DNA of 64,000 bases from a virus (IMGVR_UViG_3300006120_000015:1-64000); one strand, 5' to 3'. Shown: positions 17,578 through 50,184, counted from the first letter of the stretch. Notes: generated by a model from the letters alone, not told the origin. Numbers and translations: made by a program.

Positions 17578-18099
17578 TTGAGTAACCTATTATCTCACGC
17601 AATGGATGAATTAGACCGTATTGGAATGACGGAAGATTCTACTGATGAAATGAATCAGCTGATGCGTAAACACATTCTACATATGATGCAAGAGTTTGCC
17701 AATGAAGGCCATTCTGGTTTCTCCGCACAATATGCAATTGGTATTTTAACGAGATTGTTGGACTTCAAACCACTGTCACCATTGACGGGTGCAGATGATG
17801 AATGGACTAATGTGCGTGATTATGGTGGTGAACCACACTGGCAAAACAAACGCCGTTCATCCGTATTCAAAGATGCTAATGGTGATGTATATGACATTGA
17901 TGGTAAAGTCTTTTGGGAATGGTGTCGTGGTGCAGTAGGTGAAGATGATACACCATTCAAATCATACTACACTTGCCGTGATTCACGAGTACCTGTAACA
18001 TTCCCTTATGTTGTGCCAGATAAACCTATCTATGAGTATAGATATTCAGATGCTGAACCACAACAGCCTGCACAAAACGAAGCAGGTTTCCTAACTTAA
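17578..18099 (+). CDS. hypothetical protein (173 aa)
   Basis: ORF. Confidence 0.5.
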   Translation: MSNLLSHAMDELDRIGMTEDSTDEMNQLMRKHILHMMQEFANEGHSGFSAQYAIGILTRLLDFKPLSPLTGADDEWTNVRDYGGEPHWQNKRRSSVFKDANGDVYDIDGKVFWEWCRGAVGEDDTPFKSYYTCRDSRVPVTFPYVVPDKPIYEYRYSDAEPQQPAQNEAGFLT

Positions 18100-26536: not shown

Positions 26537-27675
26537 TGATTGATAAGTATGGTTATTGGCAAGTTGATGAAAATATATTTACAAGTAAAGTTGAGGCTTT
26601 GTTGTATGCATCAAAAAATAACAAACAAATTAAGTTTGTGTACCATGATTCTGTTTGGAAAAATTTTAACACAAATCTTTTAGGTAAAGTTCCTTTGGAT
26701 TTGCTGTATCGTGATAGAGCAATACAACTGAGAGAAAAATACAAATATCTAAAATTGTATTACTCGGGTGGTTCGGATAGTCACAACATATTGATGACAT
26801 TTATTAACAACAATATAAAATTAGATGAGATTGTTGTTAGATGGTCAAAAGAGCTCATTGAAGGAAATTTCTATTTTCCAAATAAAAAAGATCGAAGTGC
26901 TTTTAACACTTTGAGTGAGTGGGATTTTGCTATCAAACCAACATTAGATTGGTTGAAGAACAAACACCCAGAAATAAAAATAACTATAAACGACTATGTA
27001 TCAAAAATTTCAGTAGAAAATATAGAAAATTCTATGTTTGACGTAAATCATACTAGAAGTGGTTTGATTCAGCATATGCCAATATATGTTCCATATGAAA
27101 AAGATACGACAGGCCATATATTTGGAACAGACAAACCTTTATTATATTTGATTGACAAAAAGATATATATGTATTTCAATGATTTGGCTTTAACAGCTCT
27201 TTATATAAATCACGAAGAAGAACATTTTGTCGAAAATAAAGAATGTTTTTATTGGGCACCAGATTTGCCTTTACTGGCTTATGAAATGGCATATCAGTTT
27301 GCTCAACACTTTGTTAGAAACCCAGAAGAAAGAAAACTGTTGCCTGGTTTTGGTACAGTTGATAAAAAAGAAATGTCAATGTCTGAAATGATACAATTAC
27401 AAAATAATATGGCCAGAGAAATTTGTTATACAACTTGGGACAATCGTTTTCAAGCAGATAAACCAAAAAGTGGTTTAGCTAGAGATAAATTTTTATGGTT
27501 TTTTATCGGAGAAAAATTTGAAAAACCAAAGCAAGCTTTTTTAAGCGGGGTTCGTTCAAAAACTGAAGGCATAAACAAAGAATTTTTAAAAGAAGAAAGA
27601 CTAAGAAATGGTGAAGTTTACCATAATTTACTTTTAATTGCTAGTGATTTTTATTATGTTTGCGAATTGGAATGA
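26536..27675 (+). CDS. PP-loop ATP pyrophosphatase family protein, paralog
   Basis: LKLYYSGGSDSHNILMTF motif; immediately downstream of first PP-loop gene. Confidence 0.5.
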   Translation: MIDKYGYWQVDENIFTSKVEALLYASKNNKQIKFVYHDSVWKNFNTNLLGKVPLDLLYRDRAIQLREKYKYLKLYYSGGSDSHNILMTFINNNIKLDEIVVRWSKELIEGNFYFPNKKDRSAFNTLSEWDFAIKPTLDWLKNKHPEIKITINDYVSKISVENIENSMFDVNHTRSGLIQHMPIYVPYEKDTTGHIFGTDKPLLYLIDKKIYMYFNDLALTALYINHEEEHFVENKECFYWAPDLPLLAYEMAYQFAQHFVRNPEERKLLPGFGTVDKKEMSMSEMIQLQNNMAREICYTTWDNRFQADKPKSGLARDKFLWFFIGEKFEKPKQAFLSGVRSKTEGINKEFLKEERLRNGEVYHNLLLIASDFYYVCELE

Positions 27676-27677
27676 TT

Positions 27678-28541
27678 ATGAAAAAAATATTAATATGTTT
27701 ATTGTTGATGCAAGTTTTAATTTCGAAAGCTGAGACCGTAAATGTGGTATTATCAACTACACCTGGAGGAACACTATATAGTAACTTTCAACAGTTACAA
27801 AATTTCTTAGAAAAGAAAAATGTGACAATTTTACCAAGATTTAAAGTGGGTGCAGAAAGTCTTATCGCAGCTGAAGATGCTAGCAAAAGTAAACCTGACG
27901 GTTCAACAATTTGGCTGACGACAGTTGGCGGTTTAAGTAATGCAAAAAATAATAACTTTGAATTTGAATATGTTACAATGATTGACCAACCTAATTTTGT
28001 TCTGGTTGCAAATCCCAAATTAAATATTCACAACTACAATGACTTTTTATCTAATTTAAAATCTGATAAATCTTATTCTTTTTCATACACTTCAAAAGGC
28101 CATTTATTTTCCATAAAGCAACTACTTAATAATGTTCATCCCAAAACAGAATCTCTAATGGTTCCATATAAAGGGGTACCAAATCTGCTCATAGATTTAA
28201 TTGGTGGTGTAACCGATTTTTCAATATTACCCTACAGTGTCGTAAAAGATTATATTAAAGATGAAAAATTGGTTTTGATATCTTCAACCACCACTTTGTC
28301 TGATTATCCAAATATTGTGGTTTTTGAAAAATTATACAAAAATTGGTTGGACTTAAATGGGTTTGCTGTTGTTTTACCAAAAGGGACACCAAAACAGATT
28401 GTTTTAAAATGGCAAAATTACATAAAAGAGTTTGAGGAAGATCAAGAAACTAAAAAATTCTTTATGGAAAATTATTTTACTGTTACCACTTTTGGTGATA
28501 AATATTTGAAAGACAGAGTTGAAAGAGTGTATGAAAAATGA
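27678..28541 (+). CDS. secreted periplasmic solute-binding-like protein (signal peptide)
   Basis: N-terminal MKKILICLLLMQVLISKA signal; ~290 aa, size like TctC/Bug-type receptors; weak assignment. Confidence 0.4.
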   Translation: MKKILICLLLMQVLISKAETVNVVLSTTPGGTLYSNFQQLQNFLEKKNVTILPRFKVGAESLIAAEDASKSKPDGSTIWLTTVGGLSNAKNNNFEFEYVTMIDQPNFVLVANPKLNIHNYNDFLSNLKSDKSYSFSYTSKGHLFSIKQLLNNVHPKTESLMVPYKGVPNLLIDLIGGVTDFSILPYSVVKDYIKDEKLVLISSTTTLSDYPNIVVFEKLYKNWLDLNGFAVVLPKGTPKQIVLKWQNYIKEFEEDQETKKFFMENYFTVTTFGDKYLKDRVERVYEK

Positions 28542-28993
28542 CTATGAAATTTACACACGAAAAGTTGAATGATGTTCTACCGGAAATGAAGGCCTTGTTG
28601 GACGATCATTATGAAGAACTCACACTAAACAAAGACAAAGTAAAACTAAATCCTATTTGGGACACATATCTTAAACTTGAAAACAACAATGAATTCTATT
28701 TGTTGACTGCTCGTGATGATGGTGTGTTGGTGGGTTATTCGGCTTTCTTTATGAAGCCACACATACACTATGCAGATGTAATTGTTGCATCCAATGATGT
28801 GTTGTACCTGAAAAAAGAATATCGTTTGGGTATGACTGGTGTTAAGTTACTGAAATTCTCCGAACAAAAGATGAAAGAGTTTGGTGCAACCAAAGTAACA
28901 TGGCACGTTAAAGAATCAAACGACTTCAGACCCATTCTACATAGAATGGGTTATATGGACGAAGATATCATTGTAGGTAAAATTTTATGTTAA
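28538..28993 (+). CDS. GNAT-like acetyltransferase (putative)
   Basis: 151 aa; GNAT-like core VGYSAFFMKP...; weak. Confidence 0.35.
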   Translation: MTMKFTHEKLNDVLPEMKALLDDHYEELTLNKDKVKLNPIWDTYLKLENNNEFYLLTARDDGVLVGYSAFFMKPHIHYADVIVASNDVLYLKKEYRLGMTGVKLLKFSEQKMKEFGATKVTWHVKESNDFRPILHRMGYMDEDIIVGKILC

Positions 28994-29646
28994 CAAAACA
29001 ACAGGTTGATTTTCTAAATCAAATGGAGTATACTCCACTTTGGCCTAATTGGTTTTATAGTTACATAGATATTCCTAATCTTGAACCACTACGTGAGGAA
29101 TTACGTGCATTTGTAAATAATCCGGATAAAAAATCTTTTGCTACCAATTCGTCATACATTAATGTTATGGCTGAGTATGTTTTTCCACAGTGTCCTTTAT
29201 TGAAAAAGTATCTGGTTAGTGTTGGGCTGGAGAAAAAATTCCATAGACTTTTGATTTCTAGAAAAATTGTATTGAGTGAAGTTGGTAATGTTCATGTTGA
29301 CACATACAGTCCTGAGTTTACACGACACTCAATAAATATTGGAATACAAGACTACGAAGACTCTTTTACTCGATGGTTTAAAACAGACCAAAGAAAACTA
29401 AACGATGTTGCAAACCGTGGATGGGATCCAATATCAAATTTTGCTTGGATACCATTAGAAGAAGCAACAGAAATAAAAAGACTTCAATGGTCTAATAGAC
29501 CAACATTAGTCAATACAACAATACTTCATCAAGGATATTCTGAAAAAGAGAGTAGAGTTATTGTCGGACTAAGATTTAAACCCGAATTGACCGAAAGTGA
29601 CATTAAAAGACTTGGTGTGAACCGTCCTCACGTACAAGAAGATTGA
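28987..29646 (+). CDS. cupin/2OG-Fe(II)-oxygenase-like protein, paralog 1
   Basis: HxD (NVHVDTY) and distal His (ILHQG). Confidence 0.45.
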   Translation: MLTKQQVDFLNQMEYTPLWPNWFYSYIDIPNLEPLREELRAFVNNPDKKSFATNSSYINVMAEYVFPQCPLLKKYLVSVGLEKKFHRLLISRKIVLSEVGNVHVDTYSPEFTRHSINIGIQDYEDSFTRWFKTDQRKLNDVANRGWDPISNFAWIPLEEATEIKRLQWSNRPTLVNTTILHQGYSEKESRVIVGLRFKPELTESDIKRLGVNRPHVQED

Positions 29647-29647
29647 T

Positions 29648-30277
29648 ATGGAAGCCAAAGACTTATTTGCAAAATGTTGTTTTAGTGAAAAACAACTCGA
29701 AACAATGAAACAAATTTACTATAAACATTTTGCACCTTTGATGCCTGATTTTTATCAAGGTAAAGCCATCATTGCAAACTGGCGCAAAGATGATGTTGAT
29801 TGGGAAATGAATAAAAATATGGACAAAAACCATTTTAATAAAGGTTTTGTCGCTGAAGATTGTTTAGAGGATCCACTTTGGAATGAATTTGCCGATTTAT
29901 TACCATACATGTCCAGATCAGCTTCAATAACAAAATTGCCGGCAGGTAAACATATGTTACCTCATGTCGATAGGAAGTGGCGTTCTCAAGCACTTTATTT
30001 TCCTATTGAAGGTTGTTCTGAGCTATGTATATCTGAATACTATAACTTACCAAAAATAAAAACAGAAAACAATATGGTGTTTGATATTTTTCCTGATGCA
30101 CAGCATACATATTCTGTTTATGGTAATGCGTATCTAACAAATGTACACGAATGGCATGGAGTAAGAAACACAAGTAGTGTAGAAAGAATTGCTGTTGGTT
30201 GGGATTTTAGAACACCTGAAATGTCTTATCAAGATTGTAAAGATGTACTTAAAAAGTTGGGGTACTTAGATGAGTAA
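29648..30277 (+). CDS. cupin/2OG-Fe(II)-oxygenase-like protein, paralog 2
   Basis: LPHVDRKW ... HEWHGV. Confidence 0.5.
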   Translation: MEAKDLFAKCCFSEKQLETMKQIYYKHFAPLMPDFYQGKAIIANWRKDDVDWEMNKNMDKNHFNKGFVAEDCLEDPLWNEFADLLPYMSRSASITKLPAGKHMLPHVDRKWRSQALYFPIEGCSELCISEYYNLPKIKTENNMVFDIFPDAQHTYSVYGNAYLTNVHEWHGVRNTSSVERIAVGWDFRTPEMSYQDCKDVLKKLGYLDE

Positions 30278-30854
30278 TTATTACCACGAACTAAAAATTG
30301 ATGTAACAAATGCATTAAGAAAAGACTGGGTATTTCCTAAACCCAATGGTCAAAAATATAAAAACGGAGTGTGGGAATTCCCTTTAGTTGATGTTATGGA
30401 TCCTGATTGGATCAAATATGTCGAAAGTCTTGGAATAAAACTGGCTGTTGACATAATGTTGTTCTACAAACCGGTATTTTTTAACATGTTGATCGATGTT
30501 GCTCATATTGATGTTATAAACGGTGATGAAAATGAATTTAGGCATTCTAGTTTAAACATCATAGTTGGTGGTGAAGATTCTGATATGCGTTGGTATGAAA
30601 TGCCAGAAAATTTAGGAGGCATGTCTTACACCCCAGCAAACACACCTTATCTGCAATGGCCAGTAAAAAAGATGGTTGAAGTTGAAAGAAAATATATAAA
30701 ACAAAATTGTGTAACGTTGGTGAGAACGGACATTCCACATTCAATAACAGTTCATACAAAAGACCGTTGGTGTTTTGCAATGACACCGTATAAAAATCCT
30801 GAATGGAACGAAGTAGTCAAGTTGATACAAGAAAAGAATTTACTGGTGGACTAA
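30270..30854 (+). CDS. cupin/2OG-Fe(II)-oxygenase-like protein, paralog 3
   Basis: AHIDVINGD ... DIPHSITVH. Confidence 0.45.
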   Translation: MSNYYHELKIDVTNALRKDWVFPKPNGQKYKNGVWEFPLVDVMDPDWIKYVESLGIKLAVDIMLFYKPVFFNMLIDVAHIDVINGDENEFRHSSLNIIVGGEDSDMRWYEMPENLGGMSYTPANTPYLQWPVKKMVEVERKYIKQNCVTLVRTDIPHSITVHTKDRWCFAMTPYKNPEWNEVVKLIQEKNLLVD

Positions 30855-31411
30855 TGTTTAAGTATTTTGCAAAGCTAAATGGTAATTTTGAATTCAATAG
30901 TGATATCGAAAAAATTCGTGACGTAACAACTTTTGGTGCAACAGATACCCACCAAAAATTTAAAGGTATAAATTATTCACGAGTTAAGTTACTTGAAATG
31001 GAAGATGTTTATAAAGTTATACCAAAAGGAAAAAAGAAATTTTTCTTTTTGAATTTGATGAGAATCAATTCAAAAGTACCAACGCATACCGATAGTACAA
31101 TTAAAACTTGTATTAACTTCTATATAAAAACTGAAAATTGTGTCACATATTTTCACGAACCTAAAGTAGAAAATCCAAGAAAGTTTCAAATATCAAATCA
31201 GACCGATGGATACATTTTTCATCCACTAGATTTACAGATAGTAAAAGAATTTAATGCAAAACCAACAGAAGCTTGGGTCTTAAACGTCAAAGAACCGCAT
31301 AGTGTTGTGCCTTTATCTGGTATAGAAGAACGAGTTGCACTCAGCCTACAAACAAAAGATTTTACGTTTGATGAAGTGTGTGAAATGCTTAAGGAAACCG
31401 GATACTTATAA
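30854..31411 (+). CDS. cupin/2OG-Fe(II)-oxygenase-like protein, paralog 4
   Basis: PTHTDS ... EPHSVV; ATG 30854 overlaps upstream stop. Confidence 0.45.
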   Translation: MFKYFAKLNGNFEFNSDIEKIRDVTTFGATDTHQKFKGINYSRVKLLEMEDVYKVIPKGKKKFFFLNLMRINSKVPTHTDSTIKTCINFYIKTENCVTYFHEPKVENPRKFQISNQTDGYIFHPLDLQIVKEFNAKPTEAWVLNVKEPHSVVPLSGIEERVALSLQTKDFTFDEVCEMLKETGYL

Positions 31412-31426
31412 ATACCATAATGTGGC

Positions 31427-31455
31427 TTGACTTTTTGTTAAACCTGATATATAAT
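31427..31455 (+). promoter_or_regulatory. sigma70-type promoter TTGACT-17-TATAAT driving tmRNA
   Basis: -35 31427-31432, -10 31450-31455. Confidence 0.6.
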
Positions 31456-31461
31456 ATGAGA

Positions 31462-31770
31462 TATGGTTGTATGAAGCAACTTGAAAAATGTTCTGGAAGC
31501 GGGTTCGACTCCCGCCAGGTCCACCATAAAACACATTAGCTCTACGGAGCCCCAGTTATCGTTCTAGACGTGGGATAACGGAATAGTGTGTTTTATAATG
31601 GGCCTGCCATGGTTTCGACAGGGCAAAGAGTATAGAAGTGGACAACTAGACACAGATAGTCTATAAAAGTAAACTAAGTAAATGTAAATGATTCAAAATT
31701 CGCATTGGCTGCCTAATTAACGGCACCTAGGGTTTCGGTTGGTTTCCTCGTAACAGAATAACCAACCACT
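31462..31770 (+). ncRNA. ssrA: permuted two-piece tmRNA (ssrA): acceptor piece then coding piece
   Basis: T-arm GCGGG-TTCGACT-CCCGC (31499-31515) + 3' acceptor strand CAGGTCC-A-CCA ending 31526; 5' strand GGGCCUG at 31600-31606 downstream pairs with G3:U70 wobble (AlaRS identity); GGTTTCGACAGGG tmRNA 5'-end signature; tag frame ...DSKFALAA-TAA ending 31716; 3' hairpin 31735-31767. Confidence 0.75.
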
Positions 31771-31782
31771 TTAAGGATAAAA

Positions 31783-32340
31783 ATGCAGTACTGGAAAATT
31801 GTTGAAGCTGGCGACTATAAAGTTTATGGCCAAAAAATCTTAGAGCTGCACAGAAAGAAACCGGAGTTCTTTCGACACATAAATCTTTTCTGGAATCCAG
31901 TAAAGACAGACAGACTAAAAGAAGTTTTGGATAACATACCAGAATTTCAAGGTGTGATAGAAAAATTTGGGCCAATAAAACAGATGGCGGTCTTGACATT
32001 AGGTACTGATAGTAGTACACTACATATAGACCACACAGATGATTTAAATAACGGTGTTCAGGCAAGGTTAAATATACCATTGTTGAACTGTGAAGGTTCT
32101 TCAACCGCATTTTTTGAAATGGACGAAAAAACATTTCAGATGCATGAATCAACACCATCCGGCGCAAAATATTGGCCTACGAGTCTTAGGAACAGTTTGG
32201 AACCAATCACAGAGATTGAACTGATACAACCAACAATTCTAAGAACATCAAGTCCACATACAATTTTTTGTAGGACTTGCCAATACCCTAGAATATCGCT
32301 TACAATATCGTTTGTAAATGATGTTGTAAACTTTTTATGA
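31783..32340 (+). CDS. cupin/2OG-Fe(II)-oxygenase-like protein, paralog 5
   Basis: LHIDHTDD ... SSPHTIF. Confidence 0.45.
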   Translation: MQYWKIVEAGDYKVYGQKILELHRKKPEFFRHINLFWNPVKTDRLKEVLDNIPEFQGVIEKFGPIKQMAVLTLGTDSSTLHIDHTDDLNNGVQARLNIPLLNCEGSSTAFFEMDEKTFQMHESTPSGAKYWPTSLRNSLEPITEIELIQPTILRTSSPHTIFCRTCQYPRISLTISFVNDVVNFL

Positions 32341-32407: not shown

Positions 32408-32836
32408 ATGAAGAAAATTTTAGTAGCTGCTGCAGCAGTATTGTCTTTGTCAGCATTCGCTGCTGATGTATCTGTTGACCAAGTTCGTGACTATTCAGTT
32501 GCGAAAGACGGTGTTCGTGTTGGTACACAAGTGTTTGGCATTAACGTTGCCGCAACACATATCGGCAACGAATACAACCGTGTGTCAGTTGGTAAAGATT
32601 TTGAATTGACCAGAGTTGGTCCTGTTGCTTTGTCAGCAGGCGGTGCAGCTGTCTATCAAAAGACAGAAGTTGCAGGTGTTGATAATGGTTATGGTTTGAC
32701 TGTTGGTGCGAAAGCAACTTATGCAATTACAAAATCTGTTGACGCCGTTATCGGTACAGAGCGTTTCTATGGCCAAAATCGCATCAGCGGTTTCAATGGC
32801 AACACTGGTATGATCGGTGTTAACGTTAAGTTCTGA
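32408..32836 (+). CDS. secreted outer-membrane-like small beta-rich protein (signal peptide, C-terminal Phe)
   Basis: MKKILVAAAAVLSLSAFA signal; alternating amphipathic strands; ends NVKF like OMP C-terminal signal. Confidence 0.5.
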   Translation: MKKILVAAAAVLSLSAFAADVSVDQVRDYSVAKDGVRVGTQVFGINVAATHIGNEYNRVSVGKDFELTRVGPVALSAGGAAVYQKTEVAGVDNGYGLTVGAKATYAITKSVDAVIGTERFYGQNRISGFNGNTGMIGVNVKF

Positions 32837-32907: not shown

Positions 32908-33381
32908 ATGAAGAAGTTCATTCTAATTACATTATTCGCCCTGATGCCGGTTATGTCGCATAACGAACAATTATCTGAGGTTCAGAAGGTATCAGCAGAG
33001 ATAGCACGCCAAATTCAATGCATGGCACAAAATTTATACTACGAAGCCGCAAGAGAACCATATGAAGGTAAGCTGGCCGTAGCACAAGTGACAATGAATC
33101 GGACAAGAGACCCCGAATTTCCAAAAACTGTGTGTGATGTGGTCTATCAGAAGACCAATACCACTTATCAATTCAGTTGGGTCGGAGAAAAACACACTCA
33201 AGCAATCAATAAATATGAATGGGAAGAATCCATGATGGTTGCTAAGAGAGCCTTGACGGAACAATACGTACACGATAAACTCTATCATGTACGAGCAATG
33301 TACTATCACGCCGACTATGTGCATCCAGGTTGGAGAAAACAGCAAGTTGCACAAATTGGAAGGCACATATTTTACAAATGA
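32908..33381 (+). CDS. SleB-type cell wall hydrolase (Hydrolase_2 family) with signal peptide
   Basis: LYYEAAREP...GKLAVAQVTMNRTRDPEFPKTVCDVVYQ...QFSW... motif set characteristic of SleB/CwlJ-like domain. Confidence 0.65.
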   Translation: MKKFILITLFALMPVMSHNEQLSEVQKVSAEIARQIQCMAQNLYYEAAREPYEGKLAVAQVTMNRTRDPEFPKTVCDVVYQKTNTTYQFSWVGEKHTQAINKYEWEESMMVAKRALTEQYVHDKLYHVRAMYYHADYVHPGWRKQQVAQIGRHIFYK

Positions 33382-33528
33382 CCGAATACACAATATCCGA
33401 AAAATGTGGCATGATATTTTTAACTCGTGAAGAAAGAATACCATCAGGTGACTTGACACTCAACCTTTCTAAGAGTATAATCTTAGAAAAGGATGAATTA
33501 TCTACATTATTGAAAGTGATAAGCGATT

Positions 33529-33750
33529 ATGCCAACAAAACAGGAAGTGAAAGAGTTTAGTGACCTTATAGAGAAACTAAACGGAGAGCTTAGGACCGGT
33601 TATATGGATGCAATTACGCACCATTGTGAAGAAACTGGTCTTGAGATTGAAGTTGCAGCCACTCTAATCACACCGTCACTCAAATCTAAGATTAGAGAAG
33701 AAGCACAAGAAATCAATTTGCTGAAGAAAACATCCAAATTGCCGCTATGA
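33529..33750 (+). CDS. small hypothetical protein
   Basis: ORF. Confidence 0.35.
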   Translation: MPTKQEVKEFSDLIEKLNGELRTGYMDAITHHCEETGLEIEVAATLITPSLKSKIREEAQEINLLKKTSKLPL

Positions 33751-34355
33751 CAGACACTACAGGTTTTGATGCATACTCCTTGTACAATGCACTGAAACTA
33801 CATTTTACCGGCTCTTACGACTTCATCAAGTACAACGGTAAAACCAGTGTATCTCGTACAAATTTCTCTACACGCCGAGACAAATACCACTTCTACAAGT
33901 TGTCTCGCAAATATGACATTGACGAATTAAAAAATTTCTATATTGCCAACTTTATTGTTGATGATGGTTCGTGGGCGGGTGATTTACTCACACCACAGGC
34001 TGAAGAACGATACAAAAACTGGCAAAAAAGAAACCAGAGCTTGACATACCAGTTCGAACAGGATATAATCTATCTATTCAACAAGTATGATCTGAATGAC
34101 ATTCTTTCTGTGGTAGATGACCATTACCCAAGGTTACTACACGAATTGATGCAATCAGAGATTATGATTGAAACTGTTATTGTAATGGATGACTTGATGA
34201 ATTTCTTACCAATGTGGCAACGTAAAATCAAAGATGATATTATTTGGCCACGATGGGAAATGAAAATCGCCAAGTATAGACCGTTTGTACATTACGACAA
34301 ACAAAAACTGAAAAGTATTCTAAAGGAAATGGTAAAAGAACATGCAGAAGCCTAA
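33747..34355 (+). CDS. gp59: gp59-like helicase loader
   Basis: Clear colinear match to T4 gp59: YSLYNALKLHFTGSYDFIKYNG...TRRDKYHFYKLSRKYDIDELKNFYIANFIVDDGSWAGD vs YKLYLMIKQHMNGKYDVIKYNW...KRRDKYFFQKLSEKYKLKELALIFISNLVANQDAWIGD. Confidence 0.8.
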   Translation: MTDTTGFDAYSLYNALKLHFTGSYDFIKYNGKTSVSRTNFSTRRDKYHFYKLSRKYDIDELKNFYIANFIVDDGSWAGDLLTPQAEERYKNWQKRNQSLTYQFEQDIIYLFNKYDLNDILSVVDDHYPRLLHELMQSEIMIETVIVMDDLMNFLPMWQRKIKDDIIWPRWEMKIAKYRPFVHYDKQKLKSILKEMVKEHAEA

Positions 34356-34915: not shown

Positions 34916-35803
34916 ATGAGTTCATTTGCAAATCTCAAAAAACAAGCCGGTCATTTAGACAAAATGAAAAAGGCTGTTGAAAGTATGAGCCAAAACGCTG
35001 GCTCTGACAAGCCTGATAACTTTTGGAAACCAGAAGTTGACAAAGCAGGCAACGGCATGGCAACCATCCGTTTTCTACCATCCTCTCCAGGTGACGGTGA
35101 AGATTCTCTACCATGGGTAAAGATTTTCTCTCACGGCTTTCAAGGTCCTGGTGGTTGGTTAATCGATAACTGTCTCACCACTAAGAACGAACAATGTCCT
35201 GTTTGTGAACACAACAGCCGCTTGTGGAATTCTGGTGACAAAGAAGATAAAGCACTCGTAAGCAAACAAAAACGTAAACTCAACTACGTTTCTAACGTCT
35301 ACATCGTTAGCGATCCAAAACATCCAGAAAATGAAGGCAAAGTATTCTTGTTCCGTTATGGCAAGAAAATCTTTGACAAATTGACTGAAGCGATGAATCC
35401 CGCTTTTGAAGATGAAACACCAATCAATCCATTTGATTTGTGGAAAGGTGCTAACTTCAAGTTGAAGATTCGTAAAGTTGATGGCTATCAAAACTATGAT
35501 AAGTCCGAATTCGAATCACCATCTGCTTTGTTGGATGATGACAGTGAATTGGAAAAGATTTGGAAGTCTGAATACACCTTGAAAGACTTGTTGCAAGACA
35601 AAGAGTTCAAGACATACGACCAATTGAAAGATCGCTTGGAAAAAGTTCTTGGTGAATCTACAGCACCTGCTCGTGCAACTGTTGCAGAAGAACCAAAAGC
35701 AGAAGTTAAGGTTGCAAAACCAAAAGCAGAAGCTAAAGAACCAGCTCCATGGGATGATGATGATTCAGCTTATTTCGATAAGTTGGCTCAGATGGATGAC
35801 TAA
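34916..35803 (+). CDS. gp32: gp32 single-stranded DNA-binding protein
   Basis: Colinear match to T4 gp32: FWKP.VDKAGNGMATIRFLPS, HGF...C...CPVCEH zinc site, GKVFLFRYGKKIFDKL vs GKVFKYRFGKKIWDKI, acidic C-terminus. Confidence 0.9.
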   Translation: MSSFANLKKQAGHLDKMKKAVESMSQNAGSDKPDNFWKPEVDKAGNGMATIRFLPSSPGDGEDSLPWVKIFSHGFQGPGGWLIDNCLTTKNEQCPVCEHNSRLWNSGDKEDKALVSKQKRKLNYVSNVYIVSDPKHPENEGKVFLFRYGKKIFDKLTEAMNPAFEDETPINPFDLWKGANFKLKIRKVDGYQNYDKSEFESPSALLDDDSELEKIWKSEYTLKDLLQDKEFKTYDQLKDRLEKVLGESTAPARATVAEEPKAEVKVAKPKAEAKEPAPWDDDDSAYFDKLAQMDD

Positions 35804-41255: not shown

Positions 41256-41720
41256 TCACAAGCCTAGGTGCTCTTCTGTGATGATTTGAAAGTCCCAGCC
41301 ACGATCTAAACAGTATTCTTGTGCTGACTTCCATTTGGATTGATTGACGCCCCATGTCATAACTTCTTGAATGAATCTACGAGTTTTTCTTGTTGGTTGA
41401 GCTGGCGGTACTGTCTGATACTTGGGTTTAACTTCAATCATCACCGTCTTCATGCCCTTATTTGTTCTCATCTTTACGAGAAAGTCTGGAAAGTATCGGT
41501 GCCATTTACCATCAACTGGAGACTTATACGGCACAATTAATTCTTCAGATGCCCATGAAATTATGTCAGGATTACGGTCGAACCAATCCATACACCGAGC
41601 TTCCCAGCTTGAGCGATAGATGATGTTTGTAGGGTCTCCAACGTATTTCGTTGGATTTTTAGGGGTAAATCTTCCAGAATATGCCATAAATACTATGTAT
41701 GTCACTTTTTCAAATTCCAA
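41256..41720 (-). CDS. standalone PD-(D/E)XK (TnsA/restriction-endonuclease-like) nuclease
   Basis: FPDFLV ... MIEVKPKYQ = D...E-x-K core; 154 aa. Confidence 0.5.
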   Translation of the reverse strand: MEFEKVTYIVFMAYSGRFTPKNPTKYVGDPTNIIYRSSWEARCMDWFDRNPDIISWASEELIVPYKSPVDGKWHRYFPDFLVKMRTNKGMKTVMIEVKPKYQTVPPAQPTRKTRRFIQEVMTWGVNQSKWKSAQEYCLDRGWDFQIITEEHLGL

Positions 41721-46988: not shown

Positions 46989-48470
46989 ATGTCACTAACA
47001 AGTAGATTAGGTTTAAACTTTGACACCACACGATTTGGTAACGCAAAGAACCTATCTTCAACTGCCGCAAATACACTCAACCTAATATCAAACAGTTCAG
47101 GTGGTGCAATACCTGGTTGGCAACAAAATGACTTGGCTCAAGGAAGTCCAGTCAGAAGCAATTACTTTCAAAATCCAACAACAAACTATTTGAATCAAAT
47201 CTCAACCGCAGCCAACACACTAATGATGGTTGCAAATACGATTGGTGATTCAAATACATCAAGTGCAGTTGCAAACTTACTTATTGAAATTGCAAGCTTT
47301 CAATCACACACAGATAATATCTCTGGTGTTGCAACCGTAACAGACCAAACATATCCATCATTCCAATCTGCTCAGAACATGGGTCAGTTGAACATGATGA
47401 CGTTATCAAAGTCTGATGGTGTAAACGATACGACGCCAATTCTTGGTTCTTACACCAGTTTGTTCATAAACGATCTATTAAGTTCAAACGCAAACACTAT
47501 TTTATATTTTGCAAACGAATATGCAAATTCAATTACATCCGTAGCTAACAATATAAGCGGTGGTTACGATTACTCAACAAATATTGCAAACACAGAAGTT
47601 GCAAACATAGATAGTTATCTTGCAAATACAACAATTTTGTTGATGACCAGAAGAACTGGCGACTGGTCATACTATCAAAATTCTGTACAATTAGCCAAAG
47701 ACGTTGGATTCTTATCACAGTTCAATAACTTGGGTGGTACTGCAACATATCTTGTTACCAATCTTGTTGGTACACAAAGATTGACTTCAAATATCGCAAG
47801 TACAATAGGAACGACTGTTGGAGCTACTGGAATCATGACACCAGGCACAAACAGTTCTGGTGGTACTGTTACAACTACTGGTCCAATTACTGTATTAGGA
47901 ACAATCACAACAGGTACATGGCAAGGCAGTACAGTTGCAACGGGTTACGGTGGTACAGGCCTAACTTCATTTACTTTAAATGGTGCTGTGTATGCCACAT
48001 CAGCAAACACACTAACAACAGGAACACTACCTGTTGCTTCAGGTGGTACGGGTACAAGATTGTCAACAGGTTCTGGTTCAGTTGTTTTGAACACAGCTCC
48101 GTTATTGACAAACGTAACGATGAACGGAAATACTGTTGTTATTAATATTTTTTCAACAATCATAACATCACAGTATTTGACTGCAAGTAATATTGTAGCA
48201 AGTAATATAACGGCATCTAACCTTGTTATTTTGAATGTAACTTCTGGCACTATAGTACCATCAAACACCTCAACTTACAACTTAGGTTCTGCATCAAATC
48301 GTTGGGCTAACATTTACACCAGTGACTTGCAATTAAGTAACGAAGCCAAAGGTCCAAATGATGTTGATGGAACAACAGGCAACTGGACTATACAAGAAGG
48401 TGAAAACGATTTGTTCATCATCAATAACAAGACAGGTAAGAAGTATAAGTTCTCGTTGGAGGAACTGTAA
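46989..48470 (+). CDS. tail fiber protein
   Basis: 493 aa, Ser/Thr/Asn/Gly-rich; C-terminal NLGSASNRWANIYT fiber motif. Confidence 0.55.
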   Translation: MSLTSRLGLNFDTTRFGNAKNLSSTAANTLNLISNSSGGAIPGWQQNDLAQGSPVRSNYFQNPTTNYLNQISTAANTLMMVANTIGDSNTSSAVANLLIEIASFQSHTDNISGVATVTDQTYPSFQSAQNMGQLNMMTLSKSDGVNDTTPILGSYTSLFINDLLSSNANTILYFANEYANSITSVANNISGGYDYSTNIANTEVANIDSYLANTTILLMTRRTGDWSYYQNSVQLAKDVGFLSQFNNLGGTATYLVTNLVGTQRLTSNIASTIGTTVGATGIMTPGTNSSGGTVTTTGPITVLGTITTGTWQGSTVATGYGGTGLTSFTLNGAVYATSANTLTTGTLPVASGGTGTRLSTGSGSVVLNTAPLLTNVTMNGNTVVINIFSTIITSQYLTASNIVASNITASNLVILNVTSGTIVPSNTSTYNLGSASNRWANIYTSDLQLSNEAKGPNDVDGTTGNWTIQEGENDLFIINNKTGKKYKFSLEEL

Positions 48471-49027
48471 TGTCTGTTATTGTTGGCAATGGAACCATAG
48501 ATGCTGGAAGTAGTTATTTCAGAATTACAGATAACTCGGCCAACGTTATTTTTGAACAAGGCGTTTCAAGTAATAATATTGGTTATGCACTACAAAAGGG
48601 TATACCAGGTTTTGTAGCTGCGCCAGCAACTGATCCAGGCTCATGGGTCGGTTACAACGGTTGGACAAAAGTATCTTCTTATTTCAACAATACCGCATAT
48701 AATAACGGAAATTGTTATGATACAACGGCCACTAGATTTAACGTGCCTATAAGTGGTCCTTATCTTTTTATCTATACCGCTTACGTTTATAGCAGTAGTT
48801 ATTCGCATTTTTGTTTTGCGGTAAATGGCGACACAGGTGCAAGAAGGGGTGGAAACACTTTTTACAGAATCAGAGGTTATGGTATGTTGTCAAATTATGA
48901 ACAAGATGCACAAATTGAAGAAGTGATTAATTGTGTGGCAGGAGATTACGTTGAACCCTATGGTTACGGCTCAGGAAGTAATTATTATCCGTGGGAAAGC
49001 GCTTTCATGGGCGTATATGTGGGGTAA
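48470..49027 (+). CDS. C1q/TNF-like domain protein, paralog 1
   Basis: CYDTTATRFNVPISGPYLFIYTAYVY ... AGDYVEP...SAFMGVYVG = C1q core and C-terminal FSGFLL-like motif. Confidence 0.6.
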   Translation: MSVIVGNGTIDAGSSYFRITDNSANVIFEQGVSSNNIGYALQKGIPGFVAAPATDPGSWVGYNGWTKVSSYFNNTAYNNGNCYDTTATRFNVPISGPYLFIYTAYVYSSSYSHFCFAVNGDTGARRGGNTFYRIRGYGMLSNYEQDAQIEEVINCVAGDYVEPYGYGSGSNYYPWESAFMGVYVG

Positions 49028-49029
49028 CT

Positions 49030-49623
49030 ATGCCAATTGACGTAAACGGAACAAGTATATCTGGTGGAACATCAGTTACTGCAACAGACAGTAACGGAAA
49101 CATCATATTCAATCAAAATTCAAACGGTCAAGTAACAAAGCCACAAAATAGTTCTGGTTCAACACTTATTCCTTTGTTTTCCGCCGGAATGAGTGGTTCT
49201 ACTTGGAGCCAATATGTTAGTTCAGGTAGTTGGGGTAAAATACCATATAACTATGGTGGTGGATCAGGTTACTTGAATGTAAACGGTTGTTACGATTTAA
49301 CCAATTCAAGATTTACTGCACCATGGACTGGATTCTATCTTTTCAAGTCACATTGTTACATTTACGGAAATGATGGTGGTGGTAGTTGGTATTGCCATCC
49401 AATGTATTGGGTAAACGGTTCGTCAAATTTAAGAAGAGCTGGTGGAACACTTTACAGAATTAGACAATATGGTTTGTATGCAAGTTATGGCCAAGATACG
49501 GATATTTCTGAGTTGATTTATTTGACTGCTGGTGATTATGTTGAAGTTTACTGGTATTCAAATGGAAATATGCAATCTTATGATCCTTACTGTTATTTTA
49601 GTGGTTGTTACATGGGGTACTAA
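49030..49623 (+). CDS. C1q/TNF-like domain protein, paralog 2
   Basis: CYDLTNSRFTAPWTGFYLF ... AGDYVEVYWY...YFSGCYMGY; starts MPIDVNG like paralog 3. Confidence 0.6.
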   Translation: MPIDVNGTSISGGTSVTATDSNGNIIFNQNSNGQVTKPQNSSGSTLIPLFSAGMSGSTWSQYVSSGSWGKIPYNYGGGSGYLNVNGCYDLTNSRFTAPWTGFYLFKSHCYIYGNDGGGSWYCHPMYWVNGSSNLRRAGGTLYRIRQYGLYASYGQDTDISELIYLTAGDYVEVYWYSNGNMQSYDPYCYFSGCYMGY

Positions 49624-50184
49624 ATGCCAATAGATATCAACGGATCAGTAATACAAACCAGCAATGCTGCAATACAAATTATCACAAACTCAGTTTTGGG
49701 TTTGGATACGTCTTCGTTGGGTTTTATGATTCAACCAACAAGACCTTTCTTTGTTGCAATTGATAACTATGCAGGATGGCACGCTTATCCATCTAACGAT
49801 TGGGTAACAATGATTTTTAACCAAAATCTATACGACAACACTAACAGTTACAACAACGTAAACGGTCGATTTACTGCACCTGTGACAGGAAGTTATCATT
49901 TTCAAGCTTCTACATATAGTTACAAAGGCTCGAGCGATCAATCCAGTTACGTACATCCAATCTTTAGGGTGAATGACAGTTATACGTTAAAACAAGCTAG
50001 TCAAACAACACCATACAGACTAAGATTGAGAACTTGGTATGCAGGTGGATATACCGGAGACACTCAAATTAACGAGATATTATATTTGAAAGCCGGTGAT
50101 TATGTAAATCTACATCATTACTCTAGCCAACAAAACTATTGGTACGGAACACAATCTTTTTTTAGTGGTTTTTTTATAGGATAA
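49624..50184 (+). CDS. C1q/TNF-like domain protein, paralog 3
   Basis: YNNVNGRFTAPVTGSYHFQAS ... KAGDYVNLHHY...FFSGFFIG. Confidence 0.65.
   Translation: MPIDINGSVIQTSNAAIQIITNSVLGLDTSSLGFMIQPTRPFFVAIDNYAGWHAYPSNDWVTMIFNQNLYDNTNSYNNVNGRFTAPVTGSYHFQASTYSYKGSSDQSSYVHPIFRVNDSYTLKQASQTTPYRLRLRTWYAGGYTGDTQINEILYLKAGDYVNLHHYSSQQNYWYGTQSFFSGFFIG

Follow-up and report, generated by a model that had tools for sequence, protein, structure and literature searches.

Does the region between positions 31427 and 31770 of an uncharacterised viral DNA encode a genuine transfer-messenger RNA (tmRNA) and, if so, of which form? The DNA in question, IMGVR_UViG_3300006120_000015:1-64000, is 64,000 nucleotides long and is called the window throughout. 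We find that the region is a complete, promoter-driven, circularly permuted (two-piece) tmRNA gene in a phage. ARAGORN, applied to the whole 64 kb, reports a single permuted tmRNA (31434-31807, tag VNDSKFALAA) and no tRNA genes. Two Rfam models also match the gene. These are beta_tmRNA (RF01850; 117.6 bits, E = 3.7e-35, model positions 1-331) and tmRNA_permuted (RF04321; 111.8 bits, E = 5.5e-21, positions 1-213 of 213). Note that the curated gathering thresholds are 84 and 47 bits, respectively. No other Rfam family exceeds its threshold in the window. By these E-values, and by the full-length coverage of the models, the tmRNA gene is beyond chance. We put at roughly 85% the probability that the sequence specifies a functional, circularly permuted ssrA gene, of beta-like subtype, in an uncultured T4-like myovirus.

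The permuted order rests on several elements that had been recognised in an initial annotation of the window. These are a T-arm and acceptor strand, CAGGUCC-A-CCA, ending at 31526; a complementary strand, GGGCCUG, that creates a G3:U70 wobble pair; and the tmRNA 5' signature motif GGUUUCGACAGGG (31611-31623). Direct reading of the sequence finds each of them in place. ARAGORN in permuted mode and the Rfam covariance models, named there as checks, both report a tmRNA. Similarly, the pairing of GGGCCUG with CAGGUCC is part of a consistent fold (by free energy, ARAGORN and Rfam), and helix P2, which joins the two pieces, covaries. Thus, the permuted ARAGORN call, Rfam, folding and covariation all agree on the order of parts. 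The one-piece alternative, already discounted in that annotation, is ruled out by the permuted ARAGORN call, by the lack of a T-arm 3' of the tag and by the start of the next gene at 31783.

All parts of the gene are listed in Table 1. The 7-bp acceptor stem (31516-31522 with 31600-31606) was found by free-energy folding, by ARAGORN in permuted mode and by Rfam. Every alanine identity element is present: G31602:U31520 (the G3:U70 pair), A73 at 31523 and the CCA end. The Rfam structure lines, and our own alignment, place the T-arm and acceptor stem between the distal and proximal parts of P2. In the minimum-energy fold of the 314-nt precursor (z = -3.2), the T-arm, the acceptor stem and a spacer hairpin are recovered. 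The spacer alone folds at -23.5 kcal/mol (z = -4.1) and none of 200 shuffles was equally stable. It forms a long hairpin, closed by UAAAACACAUU and AGUGUGUUUUA, and then a UAUAAU leader directly before G1. No open reading frame (ORF) occurs in the window spacer (31527-31599), which is presumably removed from the precursor.

Relatives of the gene are numerous. We scanned IMG/VR for exact matches to the T-arm/acceptor strand (25 nt) and to the 5' strand (24 nt), and each of the two scans returned at least 118 loci. Both strands occur in permuted order, with spacers of 53-273 nt, at no fewer than 103 loci, and ARAGORN calls a permuted tmRNA in 94 of those 103 (among the matches listed). From the same matches we took 64 distinct viral sequences to examine covariation in P2. 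The proximal part is 100% canonical, with 17 pair types over its 7 pairs and 4-5 types at the two variable positions. When the partner strand was slid, only 32-57% of pairs were canonical, and 0/1000 column shuffles reached the observed value. The distal part is 91% canonical, above all shuffles. The G3:U70 pair is invariant in these 64 relatives. The stem of the 3' hairpin has changed, and is still complementary, in L089, L076, L066, L158, L024 and L010, while its loop is conserved. RNAalifold, applied to the 3' domain, recovered only the pseudoknot stem AGGG/UCCU; note that 12 distinct sequences extend that far. Such covariation of helices indicates a functional RNA under long-term purifying selection. 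The closest tmRNA among the matches listed is that of L089, and the interior of the window spacer is unrelated to that of L089.

Gene order is also preserved. The series tmRNA, SleB-like hydrolase, small ORF, gp59, deoxynucleotidase and gp32 is kept in at least ~19 IMG/VR contigs. Within this clade of phages, the gene is passed on by descent. In relatives, as in the window, the ribosome binding site (RBS) and ATG of the next gene lie 6-16 nt 3' of the last hairpin.

The tag shows where the initial annotation needs adjustment. ARAGORN and both Rfam alignments set the resume codon at the second GUA (31684-31686), preceded by the conserved UAAAU. The frame that follows UAAAU is GUA AAU GAU UCA AAA UUC GCA UUG GCU GCC UAA, giving VNDSKFALAA (10 codons with an ALAA end). 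In Rfam, the same region aligns to the consensus UAAAU followed by GCC...GCCGCCUAA. The stop previously assigned, the UAA ending at 31716, is correct. The start had been set at the upstream GUA, yielding VNVNDSKFALAA. The upstream GUAAAU is a conserved, non-coding pre-resume element. Hence, that reading begins one hexamer too early and the frame starts at 31684. In relatives, the junction reads GUAAAU and then GCA. The valine codon of the window is the sole exception among 95 family members (in the matches listed), the others starting with GCN (alanine). A single C-to-U change separates the window GUA from the GCA of its neighbours and creates the apparent GUAAAU-GUAAAU repeat. The window tag is otherwise a short degron of the ANDxxFALAA type, with one substitution. 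Tags were called in 94 viral relatives among the matches listed; nearly all end in AA, commonly ALAA. Many family tags in those matches are of 23-32 residues, and fall into several recurring types, for example ANADTFDFSAMSFTGNTVSGKSKVALAA, beside the 10-residue ANDxxFALAA type.

The gene has a promoter of its own, as first proposed (Table 1). In the window, 9 nt separate the -10 box from P2, and the distance is equal in relatives L115, L066 and L024. Further relatives have no comparable promoter, and their tmRNA lies directly 3' of the upstream gene. The Rfam beta_tmRNA model itself contains conserved UUGA and UAuAAU positions that match the window promoter. From its position, we infer a transcription start at ~31462, 2-3 nt 5' of P2. 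Exact TTGAC-N17-19-TATAAT sites occur seven times in the window, always on the + strand, whereas chance would give 0.19. Early promoters of the T4 type are expected to show such a pattern, and in several of the seven sites the -10 box is preceded by an extended TG. All seven are probably phage early promoters.

How might the RNA act? Beyond the promoter, fold, identity elements, tag frame and conservation, the following scheme is modelled on the two-piece tmRNA of Caulobacter and on general tmRNA biology. Early transcription would start from ~31462, together with the replication genes (gp59 and gp32 are just downstream). A cut by host RNase P on the 5' side of G31600, and trimming of the trailer as far as the CCA at 31526, would free the spacer. 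The ~65-nt acceptor piece would stay base-paired to the ~170-nt coding piece, with P2 tying the halves. Host AlaRS would charge the molecule with alanine, and host SmpB and EF-Tu would bring it to ribosomes that had stalled on broken mRNAs. There, translation would resume on GUA, add (A)VNDSKFALAA and end at UAA. With its LAA end, the tag would direct the protein to host ClpXP-type proteases. Since T4-like infection degrades host mRNA, many non-stop messages may result; a phage tmRNA would add rescue capacity and free ribosomes for phage translation.

Some observations weigh against this interpretation. The resume codon is atypical, and the valine could slightly impair function or be neutral. 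The beta_tmRNA alignment deletes the last 20 model positions, corresponding to the terminal hairpin, and keeps the penultimate hairpin (31737-31767). We take the last hairpin of the model to be, probably, a terminator in bacteria. There is no terminator-like site on the + strand 3' of the gene. With neither a terminal hairpin nor a terminator, nothing marks where the coding piece stops on its 3' side. No SmpB gene is found among the ~40 ORFs scanned in the 64-kb window, the part of the genome that is visible. Hence, function depends on compatibility with SmpB and AlaRS of the host. Finally, extra ribosome-rescue capacity is a likely benefit to the phage and one that we infer.

Two of these features would suit a different role, in which the RNA is no working tmRNA and serves instead as a decoy or inhibitor. 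By sequestering host SmpB, AlaRS or EF-Tu, it would shut down host trans-translation. Such a role has been proposed for mycobacteriophage DS6A, with its tRNA-like-domain-only form and inhibition of tmRNA (PMC4131195, PMC11915505), and both the valine resume codon and the lack of SmpB among the scanned ORFs would fit. However, the window gene retains the whole mRNA-like part: UAAAU, an open 10-codon frame with its ALAA end, a stop codon placed in the loop of a hairpin and, further 3', the pseudoknot hairpin. Moreover, the 94 relatives (matches listed) have intact tags, very different in sequence and nearly all ending in AA. Such a pattern implies selection on translation of the tag, which would be superfluous for a pure decoy, and we think this role improbable. 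A working tmRNA might alternatively serve mainly to re-route tagging, either by marking particular host or phage proteins or by altering their fate via a phage-specific tag. Selective degradation of host proteins was raised as an option by Buchholz et al. (PMC9004378). Tags of the viral family are indeed strikingly diverse, and those of 23-32 residues are unexpected for simple proteolysis signals. Yet the window tag is a short and ordinary degron and, to our knowledge, there is no target-selective recruitment of tmRNA beyond stalled ribosomes. Hence, re-routing seems very improbable here.

The remaining alternative is that the locus is a piece of host DNA, recently captured or decaying, with no phage role; it could, for example, be an ssrA fragment acquired via an integration site. 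Prophages often integrate into ssrA and carry pieces of it (PMC9004378). Such an origin would leave little reason for what is observed: both pieces are complete, Rfam scores are full-length, and the gene sits within the replication-gene module of a T4-like phage. It is also syntenic in the ~19 or more related contigs noted above, and its helices covary. Furthermore, a permuted gene with this tRNA-like core occurs in 0/185,579 bacterial species representatives (exact-match scan). We give this origin the least credence of all. We favour a rescue tmRNA over these less likely alternatives, given the conservation of the mRNA-like domain, the open tag frames across the family, the synteny of the gene and the covariation of its helices.

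Judged by its gene content, the window derives from a T4-like myovirus. Besides gp59 and gp32, structural markers include a gp25-like baseplate wedge protein, a gp19-like tail tube protein and a baseplate tube cap. The best isolate matches to gp32, with 54-60% identity, are cyanomyoviruses. No close relative among isolates emerged when the 12 kb surrounding the gene were compared, by megablast, with 50,697 phage records. With gp32 so diverged, and no megablast match, the lineage is uncultured. Five consecutive ORFs, of 185-219 amino acids, flank the tmRNA gene on the + strand (28987-29646, 29648-30277, 30270-30854, 30803-31411 and 31783-32340). None of the five matches Pfam or PHROG; their mutual similarity is weak (blastp E ~1e-4 to 4e-3), and HxD...H-like motifs are common to them. 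This suggests a diverged array of paralogues, possibly of 2OG-Fe(II)-oxygenase type. Other genes of the window are in Table 1. The TnsA-like protein may be a mobile or homing endonuclease, and the C1q-domain ORFs are probably receptor-binding tips.

Table 1. Positions of the tmRNA gene, its parts and other features of the window, with loci of relatives that have a spacer ORF.
Feature	Position	Strand	Basis or remark
Sigma-70-type (T4-like early) promoter: -35 TTGACT, 17-nt gap, -10 TATAAT	31427-31432; 31450-31455	+	11/12 consensus positions
Acceptor piece, ~65 nt	31462..31526	+	sequence, Rfam structure lines, minimum-energy fold, covariation
P2 distal 5' strand GGUUGU	31465-31470	+	Rfam structure lines, own alignment
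P2 proximal 5' strand UGUUCUG	31489-31495	+	Rfam structure lines, own alignment
T-arm: GCGGG, loop UUCGACU, CCCGC	31499-31503; 31504-31510; 31511-31515	+	sequence, fold
Acceptor 3' strand CAGGUCC	31516-31522	+	sequence, fold
Discriminator A; encoded CCA	31523; 31524-31526	+	sequence
Spacer (intervening segment), 73 nt	31527..31599	+	sequence, folding
Coding piece, ~170 nt	31600..31770	+	full-length beta_tmRNA alignment, covariation
Acceptor 5' strand GGGCCUG	31600-31606	+	G3 pairs with U70
D-loop analogue CCAUGGUUUCGA	31607-31618	+	
P2 proximal 3' strand CAGGGCA	31619-31625	+	
P2 distal 3' strand ACAACU	31642-31647	+	
Small hairpin 5' of the pre-resume element	31648-31662	+	
Tag reading frame, GUA to UAA	31684..31716	+	ARAGORN (gene positions 251-283), Rfam
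Tag stop UAA, in loop of small hairpin UGCC / GGCA	31714-31716; 31710-31713 / 31722-31725	+	fold
3' domain	31729..31767	+	stem comparison in relatives, RNAalifold
3' hairpin stem GGUUGGUU / AACCAACC, conserved 15-nt loop UCCUCGUAACAGAAU	31737-31744 / 31760-31767	+	
Probable pseudoknot, AGGG with UCCU	31729-31732 with 31745-31748	+	RNAalifold, compensatory changes
Next gene: RBS AAGGA; ATG	31773-31777; 31783	+	sequence
TTGAC-N17-19-TATAAT sites	596-623, 1439-1466, 2458-2486, 2931-2958, 31427-31455, 33453-33481, 34041-34069	+	pattern scan
Tad3, type I Thoeris anti-defence inhibitor	17578-18099	+	PF25185, 137.6 bits, strong match
TctC/Bug-type periplasmic solute-binding protein	27660-28541	+	57 bits; host-like envelope gene
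YfaZ-like outer-membrane protein with signal peptide	32408-32836	+	26 bits; host-like envelope gene
SleB-type cell-wall hydrolase	32908-33381	+	91 bits; host-like envelope gene
gp59	33747-34355		PF08993/PF08994
gp32	34916-35803		
TnsA-like endonuclease domain protein, amid tail and baseplate genes	41256-41720	-	PF08722, 86.9 bits
Two adjacent C1q-domain ORFs beside tail-fibre genes	48470-50184	+	25.5 and 32.5 bits
Loci with a spacer ORF	L056, L089, L096, L014, L079, L058, L108, L073, L040, L005/L148, L072/L153, L036, L098, L057, L012/L018, L038/L155		spacers of relatives

The tRNA-like core of the gene is shared widely. More than 100 viral contigs (IMG/VR loci L005-L164) have the two strands of the tRNA-like domain, of 25 nt and 24 nt, in letter-for-letter identical form. 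The contigs include fragments of 4 kb as well as jumbo phages of 383 kb, with a locus G+C content of 34-65% and mostly unrelated flanks. Across this family, P2, the tag and the spacer vary freely, and the core is fixed. Among the 185,579 bacterial species representatives, we found only 22 copies of the exact 25-mer (L165-L186), all in one-piece tmRNAs or tRNA-sized matches from metagenome-assembled genomes of scattered phyla. By exact matching, the 24-mer follows downstream in 0/22 of these, 0/22 are betaproteobacterial or permuted, and no host lineage is indicated by the core. Tentatively, and with rather less than even confidence, we suggest that a beta-like permuted tmRNA lineage persists and circulates among the phages themselves, instead of arising by repeated capture from hosts, with the window gene as a form whose spacer slot is empty. 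Such a phage-only lineage may exist; these are leads, not established facts, from a bacterial scan of exact matches only. As a separate observation, a cold-shock-protein (CspA-like) gene lies ahead of the tmRNA at 35 or more viral loci (e.g. L056 619-822, - strand). It has the same orientation and ends no more than 120 nt before the T-arm motif. This suggests a recurrent csp-tmRNA operon.

Spacers of the family differ in content. We compared 78 distinct spacers of relatives, from the matches listed. The window spacer and the short spacers, which are hairpins, have a closing-stem frame in common. An ORF of 25-84 codons is present in 16/18 distinct spacers of at least 120 nt, and in four spacers of 93 nt. 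Most of these ORFs have an RBS (typically AAGGAAG) directly after CCA, and a stop codon inside the UAUGAU leader before G1. The RBS forms one strand of the closing stem. The ORFs are mutually unrelated; many end ...VSL, residues whose codons lie in the strand pairing with the RBS. The available pairs of nested ORFs show few differences in which a coding-type substitution pattern could appear. At L056, the ORF (210-464, - strand) is a true thioredoxin (PF00085, 75.4 bits versus 23.5), and a full-length tmRNA_permuted match of 136 bits encloses it entirely. It is the only nested spacer ORF with independent support. As for genes inside intervening sequences, PMC11915505 mentions only a tRNA gene and a repeat element. 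Hence, nested protein genes in tmRNA spacers may be unreported.

The practical consequence is that the window gene should be labelled ssrA (permuted). Its permuted form and Rfam subtype are unsuited to guessing the host of the phage. In the window, one more T4-like phage has its own ribosome-rescue RNA under early control. This fits the idea that translation capacity is secured while host mRNA is being destroyed. The wider viral family is the more interesting lead, with an invariant core across unrelated phages that is not in permuted genes of the scanned bacteria. It could serve as a natural system for the independent evolution of tmRNA parts, and for a processed-out RNA segment that doubles as an mRNA.

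How does the gene compare with known tmRNAs? The initial annotation took the permuted order to be of the alphaproteobacterial type. This does not hold: beta_tmRNA is the retained best match of clan CL00001 at the locus, as it is for most relatives tested, and the tag fits the beta ANDxxFALAA pattern. L089, with a spacer of 207 nt, is the only relative tested that falls to alpha_tmRNA (RF01849; 55.8 bits). Nor did blastn reveal any similarity between the window gene and the alpha-like tmRNAs that Melnitz and the pelagimyophages carry. An affinity with alpha_tmRNA, or with SAR11 phages, was rejected on these grounds. In 2004, Sharkady and Williams reportedly described the beta form as a two-piece tmRNA of a betaproteobacterial clade. 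Against RF01850, the window gene has the same order of promoter, P2 5' strand, T-arm, acceptor 3' strand with CCA, spacer and acceptor 5' strand. Downstream, GGUUUCGACAGGG, the P2 3' strand, hairpin, tag and 3' pseudoknot hairpin also agree, and the tag is of the ANDxxFALAA type. The window gene differs in its acceptor stem (GGGCCUG versus the consensus GGGGGUG), in its spacer (73 nt versus ~30 nt), in its missing terminal model hairpin, in its resume codon (GUA versus GCC) and in being phage-borne rather than bacterial. The beta-specific 3' domain is incomplete for want of the terminal hairpin. Lying in a T4-like phage, the gene resembles the beta form but is not betaproteobacterial.

Isolate phages carry comparable genes. 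ARAGORN finds a permuted tmRNA in 4/4 records examined (Stenotrophomonas Marzo, Alcaligenes QDWS595, Synechococcus BUCT-ZZ01 and Xanthomonas X1). The beta_tmRNA model is above threshold in Marzo, QDWS595 and BUCT-ZZ01; phage X1 is below that threshold and matches tmRNA_permuted only (76.6 bits). The permuted form had been thought to hint at a host lineage. Since the beta-like type is above threshold in phages of Stenotrophomonas, Alcaligenes and Synechococcus elongatus, subtype is no indicator of host. Some of the hosts of these isolates (Stenotrophomonas, Xanthomonas, Alcaligenes and Synechococcus elongatus) presumably have one-piece tmRNAs. The genes of Stenotrophomonas Menderavirus (Marzo, Moby and Mendera), QDWS595, BUCT-ZZ01 and X1 are 75-88% identical to the window gene over parts of its length. 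They differ in their tRNA-like core sequences and in their tags (VAANDDSYTVRIAA, ANDNVYAAAA and ANDETFSMALAA). Whereas the window gene has a promoter of its own, several of these genes are embedded in tRNA clusters instead. Phage BUCT-ZZ01, too, is T4-like (Kyanoviridae); no shared neighbourhood was seen in its record, which is almost entirely hypothetical proteins. The permuted tmRNAs are unannotated in deposits ON615601.1 (~116.9-117.3 kb, BUCT-ZZ01), OQ427096.1 (~121.0-121.4 kb, X1) and OK149171.2 (~55.0-55.3 kb, QDWS595).

For a mechanism, the closest model is Caulobacter crescentus. In experiments by Keiler, Shapiro and Williams (2000), one precursor reportedly gave acceptor and coding pieces that were base-paired and functional in tagging. 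That tmRNA is of alpha subtype and chromosomal, whereas the window gene is beta-like and phage-borne, with processing that is predicted by analogy. The tmRNAs of mycobacteriophage Bxz1-like (cluster C1) and Bacillus phage G are phage-encoded, as here, but have the one-piece order (Hudson, Lau and Williams 2014; PMC4131195). For these, as for the window gene, no phage-specific mechanism is known.

Among T4-like phages, the gene had been considered unusual. In fact, Buchholz et al. in 2022 reported tmRNAs in 402/18,146 phage genomes, with 133 unique forms, of which 53 were two-piece and many of these from T4-like phages (PMC9004378). Their Table S1 contains the T4-like myophages S-CAM1/3, S-CRM01, S-SSM7, S-SSM6a, HTVC008M, Mosig and Melnitz. 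A 2025 tmRNA database holds 79 phage sequences (PMC11915505). The window gene is like those of Melnitz, of Pelagibacter phages HTVC008M and Mosig, and of cyanomyophages, in being a complete permuted ssrA of a T4-like myovirus (PMC9004378). In Methylophilales phage Melnitz, an early promoter immediately precedes the tmRNA, which shares an operon with the gene that follows (PMC9004378). The Melnitz and pelagimyophage genes were reported as alpha-like, with a glutamine riboswitch in the 3' domain; the window gene is beta-like, and its 3' domain has no Rfam match to a riboswitch. We conclude that phage-borne two-piece tmRNAs are an already documented class, to which the window adds another member, detectable by standard annotation tools.

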